This document shows, piece after piece, positions 19,541 through 51,775 of a stretch of DNA of 64,000 nucleotides (positions are counted from its first letter, which is position 1; the number at the start of each line of letters is the position of its first letter). The notes below the pieces were generated by a model. That model saw only the letters and a program-made list of their open reading frames with translations, searched no databases and had not been told where the DNA came from. The stretch covers positions 265,709 through 329,708 of the forward strand of contig CP129474.1 in the NCBI GenBank assembly GCA_030583765.1. Direction: 5' to 3'. The stretch comes from Minisyncoccota bacterium (GTDB taxonomy: Bacteria; Patescibacteriota; Minisyncoccia; 2-02-FULL-40-12; GWA2-44-9). The position numbers were made by a program, and so were the translations under genes.

Positions 19541-19560
19541 AAACGCCCCGAAGGGCGTTT
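19541..19560 (-). terminator. rho-independent terminator of rnpB
   Basis: Hairpin AAACGCCC-CGAA-GGGCGTTT, followed on the minus strand by a U-rich run. Confidence 0.5.
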
Positions 19561-19561
19561 T

Positions 19562-19952
19562 GGGAGGCATACCGATAAGCCGGGTTCTGTCTGGCCTTGC
19601 GGTGAGACTGTCATGTATCTAGGCGTGTCGTTGCCGCCACGCTCAAGCGATCGAACTTTTCGAACCTCGTCTCACGCATTGCTACGTGAGCGGGAACGCT
19701 GATCTTGCACCCGGGTAAGGATTTAGCCGTTTCACCCCAAGCCTTTAATCCCATCAGCTTGGACTTGGCTATGATATGACGAATCACATCACATGGGTTT
19801 GCCACCGATGCCCTTTCGAACATCGAACGTCTCTGCTCGCACCTCTCACATTACTGTGTGCGGGGGTTACCCGCTACCCTGCTCCTCTGCATACGCAAAG
19901 GGAGTGCCCGGACTTTCCTCTCCTGTTAGGGAGCGACAGTCCAGTATACCTC
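19562..19952 (-). ncRNA. rnpB: RNase P RNA (bacterial type)
   Basis: rc contains the universally conserved GGAGAGGAAAGTCCGGGCACTCCC (P4 5' strand) and ACAGAACCCGGCTTATCGG (P4 3' strand). A P1 helix GAGGUAUAC/GUAUGCCUC joins the ends. ~390 nt. Confidence 0.8.
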
Positions 19953-48248: not shown

Positions 48249-49415
48249 CTACCGCATATCTGCCTTGAAAAGGCGTGCAGTTTCGGCATAGATATTCGCC
48301 TGAATAGGGTCGATTTCCTCAGTAGTGAGTGTGCGCTCATTGCTGCGATATACAATGCGATAGGTGTAGCTCCGTCGGCCAGCACCAAACTTCTCCGCGT
48401 TCTCATACGTATCGAGTAGTTTCACTTCTTCAACGAGATCGCCTCCAAGGTCACGGATAACGTCGAAGTAATTGTTTGGGATAAAGTCATTACTCACCAC
48501 AAAAGAGATGTCTCGCGTGATTGGTGGGAACTTGCTTACCGGCACAAACGTGCGACCGAGCTGAAGCTGCGCCTTTACGCGCGGATCAGTGGACCAGAGC
48601 AATCGGATGTCAGGAAGCGCCATGCTAATAATCGCAAGGCGCTCTAAGCCAAACCCGAACGCCCATCCTGTATACACATTCGGATCAACATTCAGCTTTT
48701 CGAGAACACTTGGGTGCACAATGCCGCCGCCGAGCACCTCAATCCAGCGGTCGCCCACTTTTACTTCCATCTCGAGGCTCGGGTGTGTGTACGGAAACGT
48801 ATCTTCGTTAAAGCGATACTCAATCTCACCACCATAGAGTCCTTTTGCCACCTCAACAAGCGCCTCTTCTAAGTCTGCGCGGGAAAGATCCTTTTGCGCT
48901 TTTGGCACCATGTAGAGCCCGTCCATTTGATGGAAGATGTTCATGTGGTTCCGATCGATCTCATCTTTGCGGTACACCTTTCCATGTGAGAACACGCCGA
49001 ATGCTTCGTTGTTCGCAATGCGTTCGCGCACGACATCGGATGCAAAGTAGTAGTACCACATCACCGTGGTATGCGTGCGGAGAATGTGTGTGTCCGTAAC
49101 GTAATAGGTGTCAGAACGACTCCGCGCAGGGTGGCTCGGAGGAAAGTTGAACAGATCAAAACTGATATCAGCGCGCACAATTTCGGGCACCTCGATGCGG
49201 TCGAACCCTTGGAAATAAGGGCGCTCAACAATACGGCGCACCAGCTCAGCGATAGGGCTTTCTGGTGTGCGGGACAAATCGGGCATGCCGAGATAACGCT
49301 TGAGGCGTTCGCTATCAGCGTCGTTTCGTGTCTGTAATTCGGTACGGAGCGCCTGCTCTTCAGAACGATCAATCTGGATATCTGCACCAGTCGTGCGGGT
49401 AATAAGTAATGACAT
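48249..49415 (-). CDS. pheS: phenylalanyl-tRNA synthetase alpha-type catalytic subunit fused to a C-terminal FDX-ACB-like domain
   Basis: Class II motif 2 (FPYTHPSLEMEV) and motif 3 (GWAFGFGLERLAI). Then ~95 extra residues (…PPITRDISFVV…DLVEEVKLLDTYEN…RRSYTYRIVYRSNERTLTTEEID…) resembling the PheT/mitochondrial PheRS anticodon-binding FDX-ACB domain. Confidence 0.75.
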   Translation of the reverse strand: MSLLITRTTGADIQIDRSEEQALRTELQTRNDADSERLKRYLGMPDLSRTPESPIAELVRRIVERPYFQGFDRIEVPEIVRADISFDLFNFPPSHPARSRSDTYYVTDTHILRTHTTVMWYYYFASDVVRERIANNEAFGVFSHGKVYRKDEIDRNHMNIFHQMDGLYMVPKAQKDLSRADLEEALVEVAKGLYGGEIEYRFNEDTFPYTHPSLEMEVKVGDRWIEVLGGGIVHPSVLEKLNVDPNVYTGWAFGFGLERLAIISMALPDIRLLWSTDPRVKAQLQLGRTFVPVSKFPPITRDISFVVSNDFIPNNYFDVIRDLGGDLVEEVKLLDTYENAEKFGAGRRSYTYRIVYRSNERTLTTEEIDPIQANIYAETARLFKADMR

Positions 49416-49519
49416 AACGGGAAAGAATATGTGAGAGTGTAGCATAGCACACCATGCTCTGCATCTTGACTTCAGTTAGAAAAATTGGTATTCCTACCAC
49501 CCAGAGGAGGCTGACGGTT

Positions 49520-49909
49520 ATGCAAGAAAACGTGATCCGGTCAGGATCTCTCCTGCTGGTAATCAACCCGAACAGACCGAATTTCGGAAAGATCGTCGTC
49601 GTGGAGACACTCTCCCCACCCGACATGGCATTGTGTGTGGAGCAAGACACACCGAGCGGGCGCCTCGATAGCTACTTGCTGCCAGGCGACCACGGGGGAA
49701 TGGAGGATGCGATCCCCGTTCAGCTCAAAGACTTGCCGCCAGACAATGCCTTCGTGAGGGCGCTTCGGGCAGCCAGAATCACCCTCGGCCCCTGGTGGGA
49801 AGAGATCCACTACTTCAGCAGAGGGGCTGAGACACTGGAATCTCGGGCGAAATACCGAGAACACATCCTGCGCCTGGCGTGGAGCTGGTGCGGAACCAAG
49901 GAGGCTTGA
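49520..49909 (+). CDS. hypothetical protein
   Basis: ~130 aa, no recognisable motif. One of only two plus-strand genes between pheS and tRNA-Asp. Confidence 0.3.
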   Translation: MQENVIRSGSLLLVINPNRPNFGKIVVVETLSPPDMALCVEQDTPSGRLDSYLLPGDHGGMEDAIPVQLKDLPPDNAFVRALRAARITLGPWWEEIHYFSRGAETLESRAKYREHILRLAWSWCGTKEA

Positions 49910-50265
49910 TGAGCGCCCCCCAGCAGTTCGGGATCATCACTGATCCCGATAACGAGTACTTCGCACGGGTCTGCATGATCACGAAAGTGACTCCTGCGGG
50001 CTGGTGCACGGTGCGAGTCGGAAACCACGAGATGCGCCTGCAGGAGCACACCTGTATCGACGCTCCCGATGTGCCTCAGGTGATGCGGGTCGCCTCGCCT
50101 GAGAACCGCGCACTCCCTCTGGAGCGGGCGCTCAAAAACTTGAGCAGACCGCTCACCCACTTCGCGGCGCGCATCCGGAGGAGTAGCGATCCCATCGCCG
50201 AACGCCAGACAGCGCGCGGCGAGTTCATGAAGACGCTCTTTTCCGCGAGCCAAAGCACGCGGTAG
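49909..50265 (+). CDS. hypothetical protein
   Basis: ~118 aa from MSAPQQFGIITDPDNEYFARV…. No recognisable motif. Confidence 0.3.
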   Translation: MSAPQQFGIITDPDNEYFARVCMITKVTPAGWCTVRVGNHEMRLQEHTCIDAPDVPQVMRVASPENRALPLERALKNLSRPLTHFAARIRRSSDPIAERQTARGEFMKTLFSASQSTR

Positions 50266-50366
50266 AGACAGAAAAAGCGCAGCCCCGCAACACATCGCGG
50301 GGCTTTTTCTTTATTCGCATCCGGCCCAAATATATATCCCCCAGAGGGGGGGGGATATATAACTTG

Positions 50367-50441
50367 CGCGGGCGGCCGGATTCGAACCGGTGACCTCTTC
50401 CGTGACAGGGAAGCGCTCTAAACCAGCTGAGCTACGCCCGC
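50367..50441 (-). tRNA. tRNA-Asp (anticodon GUC)
   Basis: rc reads GCGGGCGTAGCTCAGCTGGTTTAGAGCGCTTCCCTGTCACGGAAGAGGTCACCGGTTCGAATCCGGCCGCCCGCG. Anticodon stem CTTCC/GGAAG, loop CTGTCAC. Confidence 0.85.
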
Positions 50442-51163
50442 AGCGTGCTATCGAATTGCCTGAATATCTTACTTGCTTTCTGGAAAATTTTCAACTTGCG
50501 CGGGAGAAAAAGGGTCTCCCCATCTCTCTTCTTATACATTAAAGCGTAAAGCCCAGCAGAGTCGCGCCAAGAAAAAACAAGGTCAAAAGATCTATTTTTT
50601 TGATATATAAACCCAGATTGCACAGCGCCAGTGGCTCTGAGAGCCGAAAGAAGGGCTAATAAAAAGTCTTTACTCCCCGAAGAAAAGCGTGATGTTATCG
50701 TCCAGCGGTATGCATTGTTCTCTGAGCGCTTATAGCGCCCAAAACTAATACATCCATCGCCATCAAAGTAACCCCTTACGAATGAGGCGAAAAATTTCTT
50801 TGGGATTTTAGGGAGCTGAATAGAGAAGCTTTTATTCGCAACAACTCCTAATTTCTCTAGATCACGCACCCAAGCAACCGACCCTATCTGGACGCGATAT
50901 GCGATCTTCCAACGCACATTCTGTTGGGTACGCCTTACGGGACGAACTGGGTGAGGAAAGCCAATCCTCTTTTTTAACTGCCTCAACAACACAACATCGG
51001 TACTATAGAGAGATACATACCGAGGCGGGCTGCCTTCAACTGCGCCGTCCGCACAGATAAACCCGAGCGCATACGCCATGTCATCACTCCACTTTTTGAA
51101 GAAGTCATCCCATTTATCCATAGTGCATTCTAACCATTTTTGAAAGAAAAGGCCAGCGCCCAT
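50432..51163 (-). CDS. free-standing LAGLIDADG homing endonuclease (two-motif)
   Basis: Two LAGLIDADG motifs: LGFICADGAV and VRGYFDGDGCIS. Low-GC gene. Its stop overlaps the tRNA-Asp 5' end by 10 nt. Confidence 0.7.
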   Translation of the reverse strand: MGAGLFFQKWLECTMDKWDDFFKKWSDDMAYALGFICADGAVEGSPPRYVSLYSTDVVLLRQLKKRIGFPHPVRPVRRTQQNVRWKIAYRVQIGSVAWVRDLEKLGVVANKSFSIQLPKIPKKFFASFVRGYFDGDGCISFGRYKRSENNAYRWTITSRFSSGSKDFLLALLSALRATGAVQSGFIYQKNRSFDLVFSWRDSAGLYALMYKKRDGETLFLPRKLKIFQKASKIFRQFDSTLRA

Positions 51164-51178
51164 CTACACCACCCCGCC

Positions 51179-51775
51179 TTACAAACGAGACACGATGCAG
51201 ATGAAGCGCTGGCGGAAACCAGCGAGAAACTGGTCGTTGGTCAGCACGCGATACCCTTTCTCGCGCGTAGACTCTAGTGGGTCTTGCACAACAACATGTC
51301 CCCCGTCAGCGCCAACAACTACGACGAGGTGCCCGCTCTTTGACCGTGGGTGGAAATCTTTCCACACCGATGCGATCACCGGCCCTTGTGCCAGCGCCTT
51401 GCGCAACAGTTCGAGCGATGCGACGGGACTTTCGGGTGTTTTAGATTGTGGCGCGAAGTCAGCATTATAGCCGTCGAGGCCGTACTGCCGTGCAAGCGAA
51501 ACAAGCCCTGCATGTCGCCACCCAACGCCGGACATGTACGCTCCTATGGCGACCCCCTCAGCGAAGAGATCGTCACAGGTTTCTTTTCGGAGCTCTGGCT
51601 TCCAGAATTCAATAACGCTCTGCAGCGCAGCGATGCCGCACCCTTGCGAGCGCCATGTCTTGTTCGTAAAGTCCGTGACTTGCGAATGCCACGGAACGCG
51701 CCATTCACGACGCGGCGCTCTACGCATCAAGCTTGGAGTGCCAGTAGATACGGACGATCTTCCTTGTGTTGCCAT
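51179..51775 (-). CDS. C39-like (papain-fold) cysteine peptidase domain protein
   Basis: …WRSQGCGIAALQSVIEF… fits the C39 catalytic Cys context, with a downstream His (SGHLVVVVGADGGHVV). Confidence 0.45.
   Translation of the reverse strand: MATQGRSSVSTGTPSLMRRAPRREWRVPWHSQVTDFTNKTWRSQGCGIAALQSVIEFWKPELRKETCDDLFAEGVAIGAYMSGVGWRHAGLVSLARQYGLDGYNADFAPQSKTPESPVASLELLRKALAQGPVIASVWKDFHPRSKSGHLVVVVGADGGHVVVQDPLESTREKGYRVLTNDQFLAGFRQRFICIVSRL

Follow-up and report, generated by a model that had tools for sequence, protein, structure and literature searches.

A free-standing LAGLIDADG endonuclease gene that ends inside tRNA-Asp, a probable selfish homing cassette of Patescibacteria

The homing endonucleases encoded in introns, inteins and phage genomes are a familiar group. 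The gene considered here encodes a putative LAGLIDADG homing endonuclease and overlaps the 5′ end of a tRNA-Asp gene in a stretch of 64,000 nucleotides (nt) from a Minisyncoccota bacterium of the Patescibacteriota (GenBank assembly GCA_030583765.1, contig CP129474.1, positions 265,709 to 329,708 of the forward strand); the whole stretch is called the window, and its coordinates are used throughout. A bacterial homing endonuclease of a tRNA gene with an anticodon-loop group I intron has a similar link to a tRNA, but it is encoded inside the intron, unlike the window gene, and is not known to be a LAGLIDADG enzyme. The endonuclease SegB of phage T4 is also free-standing, with its gene among tRNA genes; its 27-bp site contains a conserved tRNA (T-psi-C) motif, and it drives the inheritance of itself and of the neighbouring tRNA genes (PMC2330249). 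SegB is a GIY-YIG enzyme of a phage and acts in co-infections, whereas the window enzyme is a LAGLIDADG protein of cellular Patescibacteria genomes, has a presumed target, and is encoded by an open reading frame (ORF) that physically overlaps the tRNA. The pairs known from collaborative homing (F-CphI and the psbA intron; T4 mobE and the I-TevIII intron) involve phage protein-coding genes and other nuclease families (PMC3984707, PMC6083498, PMC2790892), whereas the host gene of the window family is a cellular tRNA and the window copy lacks an intron. LAGLIDADG endonucleases have also been described within rRNA insertions of bacteria of the candidate phyla radiation (CPR), in a paper with 0 occurrences of tRNA (PMC11270868). 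They share with the window family the bacterial radiation, the nuclease superfamily and the logic of targeting a conserved RNA gene; they sit inside 16S/23S rRNA insertions or introns, whereas the window family is found at the 5′ edge of the RNA gene, outside it.

The window gene is, in our view, probably a selfish homing cassette that has specialised on the gene for tRNA-Asp and a LAGLIDADG counterpart, in cells, of T4 SegB, with a presumed target site located inside the tRNA gene itself. An earlier note, written from the DNA sequence of this locus alone, had named a selfish passenger as one reading of the gene, and this appears to be the best one.

The longest ORF (50432–51163, minus strand) encodes 243 amino acids (aa) and exists as the earlier note had it, but the true start is probably the ATG at 51121, which gives a 229-aa protein. 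The likely coding sequence (CDS; 50432–51121, minus strand) starts with MDKWDD and closes with a TAG stop at 50434–50432. This start is likely because the homologues begin there (the N-terminus of the 229-aa form lines up with those of 46 homologues), as does the NCBI protein QY311_01635 from a metagenome-assembled genome of Candidatus Paceibacterota, which is identical to the 229-aa form. It is also likely because the upstream ATG at 51163 falls within the 3′ arm of a hairpin (51152–51213), and because this hairpin and its U-rich tract resemble a terminator of the upstream C39-like peptidase gene. The 14-codon in-frame extension upstream (51122–51163, minus strand) is not found in homologues and is probably untranslated.

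Both LAGLIDADG motifs claimed previously are present in the one protein and are kept across 47 homologues: LGFICADGAV (51038–51067, minus strand; catalytic Asp codon 51047–51049) and VRGYFDGDGCIS (50744–50779, minus strand; catalytic Asp codon 50756–50758). The catalytic residues are Asp25 and Asp122 in the 229-aa numbering, one ending each LAGLIDADG helix. The Asp of motif 1 is invariant in 77/77 family members and that of motif 2 in 78/78; the motif 1 Asp and the stretch RGYFDGDG do not vary in the 47-sequence alignment either. The window copy is full length and carries every residue that is invariant in the family by this alignment. The Pfam check that had been proposed gave a divided result: LAGLIDADG_3 (PF14528) passes with 34.8 bits over two stretches (cut-off 22.5), while LAGLIDADG_1 (PF00961) falls slightly under its cut-off (19.7 against 23.1 bits). 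PHROG 4645 “endonuclease” matches the protein at 1.7e-32, an NCBIfam scan gave nothing meaningful, and a sequence search of the PDB returned no match at E ≤ 1.

The AlphaFold2 model, built on 47 homologues, has a pLDDT of 90.7 and a pTM of 0.89, and the predicted fold is that of a monomeric, two-domain (pseudo-dimeric) LAGLIDADG nuclease with the order alpha-beta-beta-alpha-beta-beta-alpha. The best PDB matches in Foldseek were I-Tsp061I (2dch; TM 0.66/0.73), I-AabMI, I-AniI and E-DreI, with I-SceI lower down; there were 139 PDB matches at E ≤ 0.001, and those listed comprise LAGLIDADG nucleases together with a maturase and the endonuclease domain of an intein. The monomeric two-domain enzymes I-Tsp061I, I-DmoI/E-DreI, I-AniI and I-SceI have in common with the window protein the two motifs with their catalytic Asp and a fold repeated twice in ~200–250 aa (Foldseek TM 0.60–0.73, probability 1.0), at just 11–18% sequence identity. 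Those enzymes are mostly intron- or intein-encoded, whereas the window gene is free-standing and tied to the flank of a tRNA gene. The 229-aa form carries no additional domain by Pfam or in the model. Judged by dN/dS values of 0.08–0.16 in its eight closest pairs, the family is under purifying selection. The protein itself is an ordinary member of the LAGLIDADG superfamily, and site-specific nuclease activity is its presumed function.

The gene was correctly described as free-standing: it lies outside any intron or intein, because the adjacent tRNA-Asp is complete and uninterrupted. The ORF has its own start, its flanks are not extein-like, and an Rfam scan found no intron within the window. 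The low GC content noted earlier was likewise confirmed at 0.455, compared with 0.57–0.59 in the immediate flanks and a median of 0.535 for the window (2nd percentile among segments of the same size); it is not unique to this gene, as a nearby native-looking M16 peptidase gene has a GC content of 0.464.

The tRNA-Asp(GTC) gene (50366–50441, minus strand) was found by ARAGORN, scores 64.7 bits with the Rfam tRNA model and has no intron. The ORF ends in CTG CGG GCG TAG, and base 1 of the tRNA is the G that closes CTG, so that tRNA bases 2–10 double as the last two codons and the stop. The overlap of CDS and tRNA 5′ end that had been seen from the sequence thus measures 10 nt (50432–50441, minus strand), and the TAG stop of the endonuclease is the conserved U8-A9-G10 of tRNA-Asp (tRNA positions 8–10).

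This abutment is no local accident but a trait of the whole family. The closest homologues are 45–47% identical and ~225 aa long, and those with a named source are mostly labelled Patescibacteria. When 1.84 billion representatives were searched with a profile, 1,822 clusters (50% identity) were retrieved at E ≤ 1e-30. In a scan that took one genome from each GTDB species, relatives occur in at least 503 species genomes, nearly all of them with a Patescibacteria label, so that the rarity claimed for such genes finds no support. The label of recent mobile DNA fares no better: no recent donor is visible because the nearest homologue is only 45–47% identical.

In the first three contexts retrieved (L001, L006 and L007) the ORF ends exactly 10 nt inside a tRNA-Asp(GTC) gene, with acceptor stems that differ, and often stands directly after tRNA-Met genes. 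Seventy-six GTDB loci could be scored, and in ~73 of them the ORF stops near the 5′ end of a same-strand tRNA, at a point from 24 nt within the tRNA (−24) to 110 nt ahead of it (+110). The linked genes are ~41 intron-less tRNA-Asp, ~21 tRNA-Asp with an insertion and 11 tRNA-Cys(GCA). The ORF overlaps the tRNA in ~60% of the tRNA-Asp cases, with recurrent ends at U8-A9-G10 (−10) or at tRNA bases 13–15 (−15); the 10-nt overlap was obtained with ARAGORN at L001, L006, L007 and 19 GTDB loci, and L048 and L089 show the same junction by eye. Upstream neighbours vary, with tRNA-Met in about half of the loci and tRNA-Val or protein genes otherwise. The tRNA is therefore the only constant partner, and the target most likely lies within the tRNA gene. 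The endonuclease genes linked to tRNA-Cys form one clade in the tree, which points to a single switch of tRNA partner. This monophyletic tRNA-Cys(GCA) branch, in which a tRNA-Leu usually follows, comprises L061, L066, L067, L069, L070, L074, L078, L079, L080, L085 and L087.

Some family members are longer, at ~315–330 aa, with an N-terminal extension of ~90 aa (P0041 at L007 4001–4948, P0030, P0040, P0044 and others). PHROG 4645 has 308 positions and covers the window protein solely at its positions 99–305; a longer form therefore also occurs in phages. Relatives in phage genomes are just 24–30% identical, and the annotations of some read mobile-intron or intron-encoded protein. No paper on tRNA-flanking LAGLIDADG genes in the CPR turned up in the literature searched, and the family is apparently undescribed. 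What is new is the arrangement: a family of free-standing LAGLIDADG genes in cellular genomes that keeps to the 5′ edge of tRNA-Asp and tRNA-Cys genes, with frequent termination inside the tRNA and frequent adjacency to an intron-bearing allele.

The nearest relatives of the window genome were chosen by PheS (~70% identity to the window). They keep the order metalloprotease-like gene, 157–167-aa gene, tRNA-Asp, pheS and gyrB without the endonuclease gene: the 159-aa gene stops 27 nt before tRNA-Asp in L211, and the gap is 33 nt in L217/L218. The gene is also missing beside the tRNA-Asp of L212, which has a 220-nt non-coding gap upstream, and in L216 and L131 the distance from tRNA-Met to tRNA-Asp is 12 and 48 nt with nothing between. 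Conservation in all relatives, which the earlier note had named as counting against its view, is thus not seen. The tRNA-Asp of the window is identical to that of L211 at 74/76 positions and to that of L212 at 73/75, and the main difference is one extra T in the D-loop of the window gene. This D-loop has 10 nt (AGCTGGTTTA), and the window allele GGTTTAGAGC stands against the canonical GGTTAGAGC of the endonuclease-free L211 and L212.

Signs of mobility are also seen elsewhere in the family. The endonucleases of the syntenic loci L067 and L087 are 81% identical, compared with 46–55% for IF-2 and other flanking proteins, and nucleotide identity changes from ~0.5 upstream to 0.8–0.95 over the ORF and tRNA-Cys and to ~0.6 beyond. 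Across 418 locus pairs, the identity of the endonucleases and that of host proteins correlate with r = 0.13. Shortened endonuclease copies occur at L021, L039 and L045, as would be expected from an invasion-decay cycle. On these grounds we favour a dispensable and mobile gene, a selfish homing element rather than a domesticated host gene.

The tRNA-Asp alleles have a history of their own. L211 (5921–5997) and L217 (1919–1996) have PheS proteins that are 87% identical and tRNA-Asp genes that agree at 60/77 positions (GCTC-type and GTGT-type D-arm, respectively), at the same syntenic site and behind the same promoter. The window and L211 differ more in PheS (71% identical) and agree in tRNA-Asp at 74/76 positions; the window, L211 and L212 share one allele. 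The alleles do not track the host phylogeny, which suggests repeated gene conversion or allelic replacement at the tRNA-Asp locus. When metagenomes were scanned with the 14-mer GAGCGCTTCCCTGT, most matches were random and only ~17 were tRNA-Asp genes; a few empty sites came out of this, but no usable frequency. Two candidate traces of past events were rejected. The 936-nt gap between tRNA-Met and tRNA-Asp in L098, considered as a decayed endonuclease copy, contains an unrelated opposite-strand gene. A tRNA remnant upstream of the window gene, considered as a homing scar (GCGGG-GTGGTGTAG, ~51162–51175), matches 14/15 bases of the L217-type tRNA-Asp 5′ end and is the best such match in the window; Rfam finds no tRNA there, other loci have no counterpart, and the bases are those of the hairpin 3′ arm.

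Some of the linked tRNA-Asp genes are interrupted. Their 5′ half runs to CCTGT, followed by an insert of 196–241 nt and then by G|CAC and the 3′ half; the insert is ORF-less and lies between U35 and C36 of the anticodon. At L011 it matches Rfam Intron_gpI (RF00028) over the full model in a local search (44 bits, E = 3.7e-10); the gathering score of this model is 50, and at the gathering threshold Rfam did not call the tRNA-Asp introns. The intron is present in ~21 of 62 endonuclease-linked tRNA-Asp genes, and absent from that of the window. The intron loci are L011 (3778–3988), L012, L013, L016, L018, L021, L024, L025, L029, L030, L032, L033, L047, L048, L052, L063, L065, L073, L075, L088 and L089. 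Among ~15 endonuclease-free tRNA-Asp genes sampled, none had a clear intron. The tRNA-Met, tRNA-Arg and tRNA-Leu genes of the same genomes also carry introns of ~180–300 nt (L013 2120–2421, L016 4982–5234, L029 6156–6465, L032 1447–1743, L046 4486–4750, L052 5933–6234, L075 5156–5477 and others), and two of these reach the gathering score of Intron_gpI (L013 2184–2396 and L075 5179–5389). Group I introns in tRNA genes seem to be common in this radiation, and a specific link between intron and endonuclease is tempered accordingly.

Differences in the D-loop were compared within GCTC-type tRNA-Asp genes, because tRNA type confounds comparisons of D-loop length: L217, which lacks the endonuclease gene, carries a GTGT-type D-loop of 10 nt. 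Unusual D-loops, with 1-nt insertions at several positions or with deletions, were found in 13/19 intron-less linked genes, compared with 2/14 intron-containing linked genes and 2/13 endonuclease-free genes. Fisher tests gave p = 0.004 and 0.005 (4e-4 combined) for a comparison that was devised post hoc, ignores shared ancestry and includes a few mis-parsed entries. Such a pattern would be expected under the hypothesis of a site that spans the D-loop to the anticodon and is disabled by an indel or by the intron. The same anticodon-arm sequences occur in intron-less linked, intron-containing and endonuclease-free alleles.

In the mechanism that we propose, the enzyme would cleave the highly conserved tRNA-Asp gene of other genomes in alleles that lack the endonuclease, and the allele that has it would serve as the template for repair of the break. 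The endonuclease gene lies flush against the tRNA and borrows U8-A9-G10 as its stop; because of this position, it would be co-converted with almost every repair event. The conserved tRNA gene, together with the upstream tRNA-Met where present, would supply both the target and the homology for moves between diverged genomes. We conjecture a protection of the window's own allele, for which the extra base of its D-loop may be responsible, just as the anticodon group I intron may protect alleles elsewhere. A more elaborate version combines tRNA-targeting homing at a site running from D-loop to anticodon, escape by a D-loop indel (the extra T of the window) or by an anticodon intron, which would amount to collaborative homing in a cellular tRNA gene, and stripping of the stop by RNase P, which would couple expression to tRNA maturation. 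The last element arises because the stop consists of tRNA bases 8–10, so that RNase P processing of a co-transcript would remove the stop codon from the mRNA. We regard this combination as a possibility, though a rather unlikely one. A class A RNase P RNA, which bears on the stop-removal idea, is encoded at 19560–19952 of the window (minus strand; 119 bits).

The co-transcription assumed here, like the arrangement of promoters, is a presumed one. A sigma-70-like candidate promoter (TTGAAA-17-TAAGAT; 50466–50494, minus strand) is located 24 nt before the tRNA and within the 3′ end of the CDS; one such site was found in the region, against 1.1 expected by chance. Over 77 loci, 38 sigma-70-like sites fall in the last 120 nt before the tRNA, compared with ~1–4 per 40-nt bin farther upstream in the ORF, and a clear promoter (TCGACK-17-TAYTAT) stands at the equivalent position in relatives that lack the endonuclease. 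This is suggestive of an endonuclease cassette that may bring its own replacement promoter for tRNA-Asp.

Several points weigh against a selfish homing cassette. We infer both cleavage and target, and if the target is the tRNA-Asp gene, the intron-less allele of the window needs the protection conjectured above. The only evidence of mobility for the window copy is its presence or absence relative to genomes that are ~70% identical in PheS; its distance from the nearest homologue means that no recent transfer is visible, and the signatures of horizontal transfer were obtained in the tRNA-Cys clade and in a small number of tRNA-Asp pairs, outside the lineage of the window. Most branches of the family are long, which is also compatible with long vertical residence. 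An alternative is a domesticated LAGLIDADG protein, a vertically inherited and immobile host gene tied to tRNA-Asp that would regulate transcription or processing of the tRNA operon or act as a maturase of the group I intron. The stereotyped position in hundreds of species, strong purifying selection (dN/dS ~0.1–0.16), long terminal branches with few near-identical copies across species, the intron in about a third of the linked tRNAs and the presence of the LAGLIDADG maturases I-AniI and bI3 among the structural neighbours would all agree with such a role. We nevertheless find it unlikely, as the closest relatives lack the gene at the syntenic site, two of them (L211 and L212) with a virtually identical tRNA-Asp, and both catalytic Asp residues are invariant, unlike in domesticated LAGLIDADG proteins. 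In some pairs the endonucleases are far more similar than the flanking host genes, with a block of identity that ends sharply at the cassette edges; truncated copies exist, and about two thirds of the linked tRNA-Asp genes, that of the window included, have no intron to mature. The marks of WhiA-type regulators and pure maturases (lost acidic residues, added domains, universal vertical inheritance) are not seen. An inert relic, once mobile, no longer cleaving and slowly decaying, would fit the long and isolated branch of the window copy, which has no known close relatives, and the apparently uncleaved tRNA allele of its own host, but a full-length ORF with every invariant family residue, a confident structure model and purifying selection on the family as a whole make this very doubtful, and the clearly truncated copies at L021, L039 and L045 look different.

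A second group of explanations concerns what the enzyme may have acted on or brought along. If it targets the site of the anticodon intron (U35/C36) and the ORF-less intron protects the allele, the window would represent a case in which the intron was lost or never gained. Such collaborative homing has a phage precedent (PMC3984707) and would account for a group I intron without an ORF at one position in ~21/62 linked tRNA-Asp genes and in none clearly of the ~15 endonuclease-free genes sampled, and the contrast between GCTC-type D-loops (13/19, 2/14 and 2/13) would fit alternative routes to immunity. We hold it to be improbable for this locus. The window tRNA-Asp lacks the ORF-less intron, and anticodon-arm sequences are identical across the three kinds of allele. 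Similar introns are common in tRNA-Met, tRNA-Arg and tRNA-Leu of the same genomes, in an ARAGORN survey made regardless of neighbouring endonuclease genes, so that the co-occurrence may stem from a high base rate; the control set of genes without the endonuclease is small and mixes taxa, and the D-loop comparison has the limits given with it. The stronger reading of the earlier note, a recent arrival that brought in or inserted the neighbouring genes, can draw on the low GC content of the gene and on the extra DNA that the window has on both sides of the tRNA relative to L211 and L217, a C39-like gene upstream and a 920-nt block downstream. It appears very improbable, however, and insertion of the adjacent cluster was not borne out: homing endonucleases copy themselves by break repair and do not insert unrelated DNA, the extra segments have a GC content of 0.57–0.59 compared with 0.455 for the endonuclease gene, a terminator-like hairpin stands between it and the C39 gene, a Pfam scan of seven neighbouring ORFs showed no family of integrases or transposases, and the best match is 47% identical, which leaves no close donor. 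A selfish homing cassette specialised on tRNA-Asp thus remains our preferred explanation.

The Peptidase_C39_2-like gene (51179–51775, minus strand; Pfam 38.1 bits) has the conserved 157-aa gene on one side and the endonuclease gene on the other, and is not at the syntenic site in L211 and L217. Its stop codon is located in the loop of the long imperfect hairpin of 62 nt (51152–51213, minus strand), which is followed by the U-rich tract and has an RNA folding energy of −41.6 kcal/mol (z = −3.98; 0/200 shuffles equally stable). This hairpin is probably an intrinsic terminator that parts the C39-like gene from the endonuclease gene. Two further terminator-like hairpins (50338–50355 and 50281–50304, minus strand, together within 50281–50355) lie just 3′ of tRNA-Asp. 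They fall in the GC-rich segment of 920 nt (49446–50365; GC 0.586) between tRNA-Asp and pheS, which holds two overlapping plus-strand ORFs (49454–49909 and 49879–50265) that gave no Pfam or PHROG match. The segment is not found in L211, where tRNA-Asp sits 3 nt from pheS. The window PheS (48249–49445, minus strand) is a single chain of 398 aa with tRNA-synt_2d and FDX-ACB domains, gyrB is directly next and there is no pheT. It had thousands of homologues in a database search, and an identical PheS (P0121) is present on 4 Logan contigs; other CPR loci, such as L007, have separate pheS and pheT.

If the gene is indeed a homing cassette of tRNA genes, a recurrent “hypothetical protein” of CPR genomes would be explained. 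The tRNA-Asp and tRNA-Cys loci would then be hot spots of gene conversion between diverged ultrasmall bacteria, which fits the tRNA-Asp alleles that depart from the host phylogeny. The family would also offer a natural setting in which to study the origin of associations between free-standing endonucleases and ORF-less group I introns, and a large and diverse panel of compact natural meganucleases with related targets.

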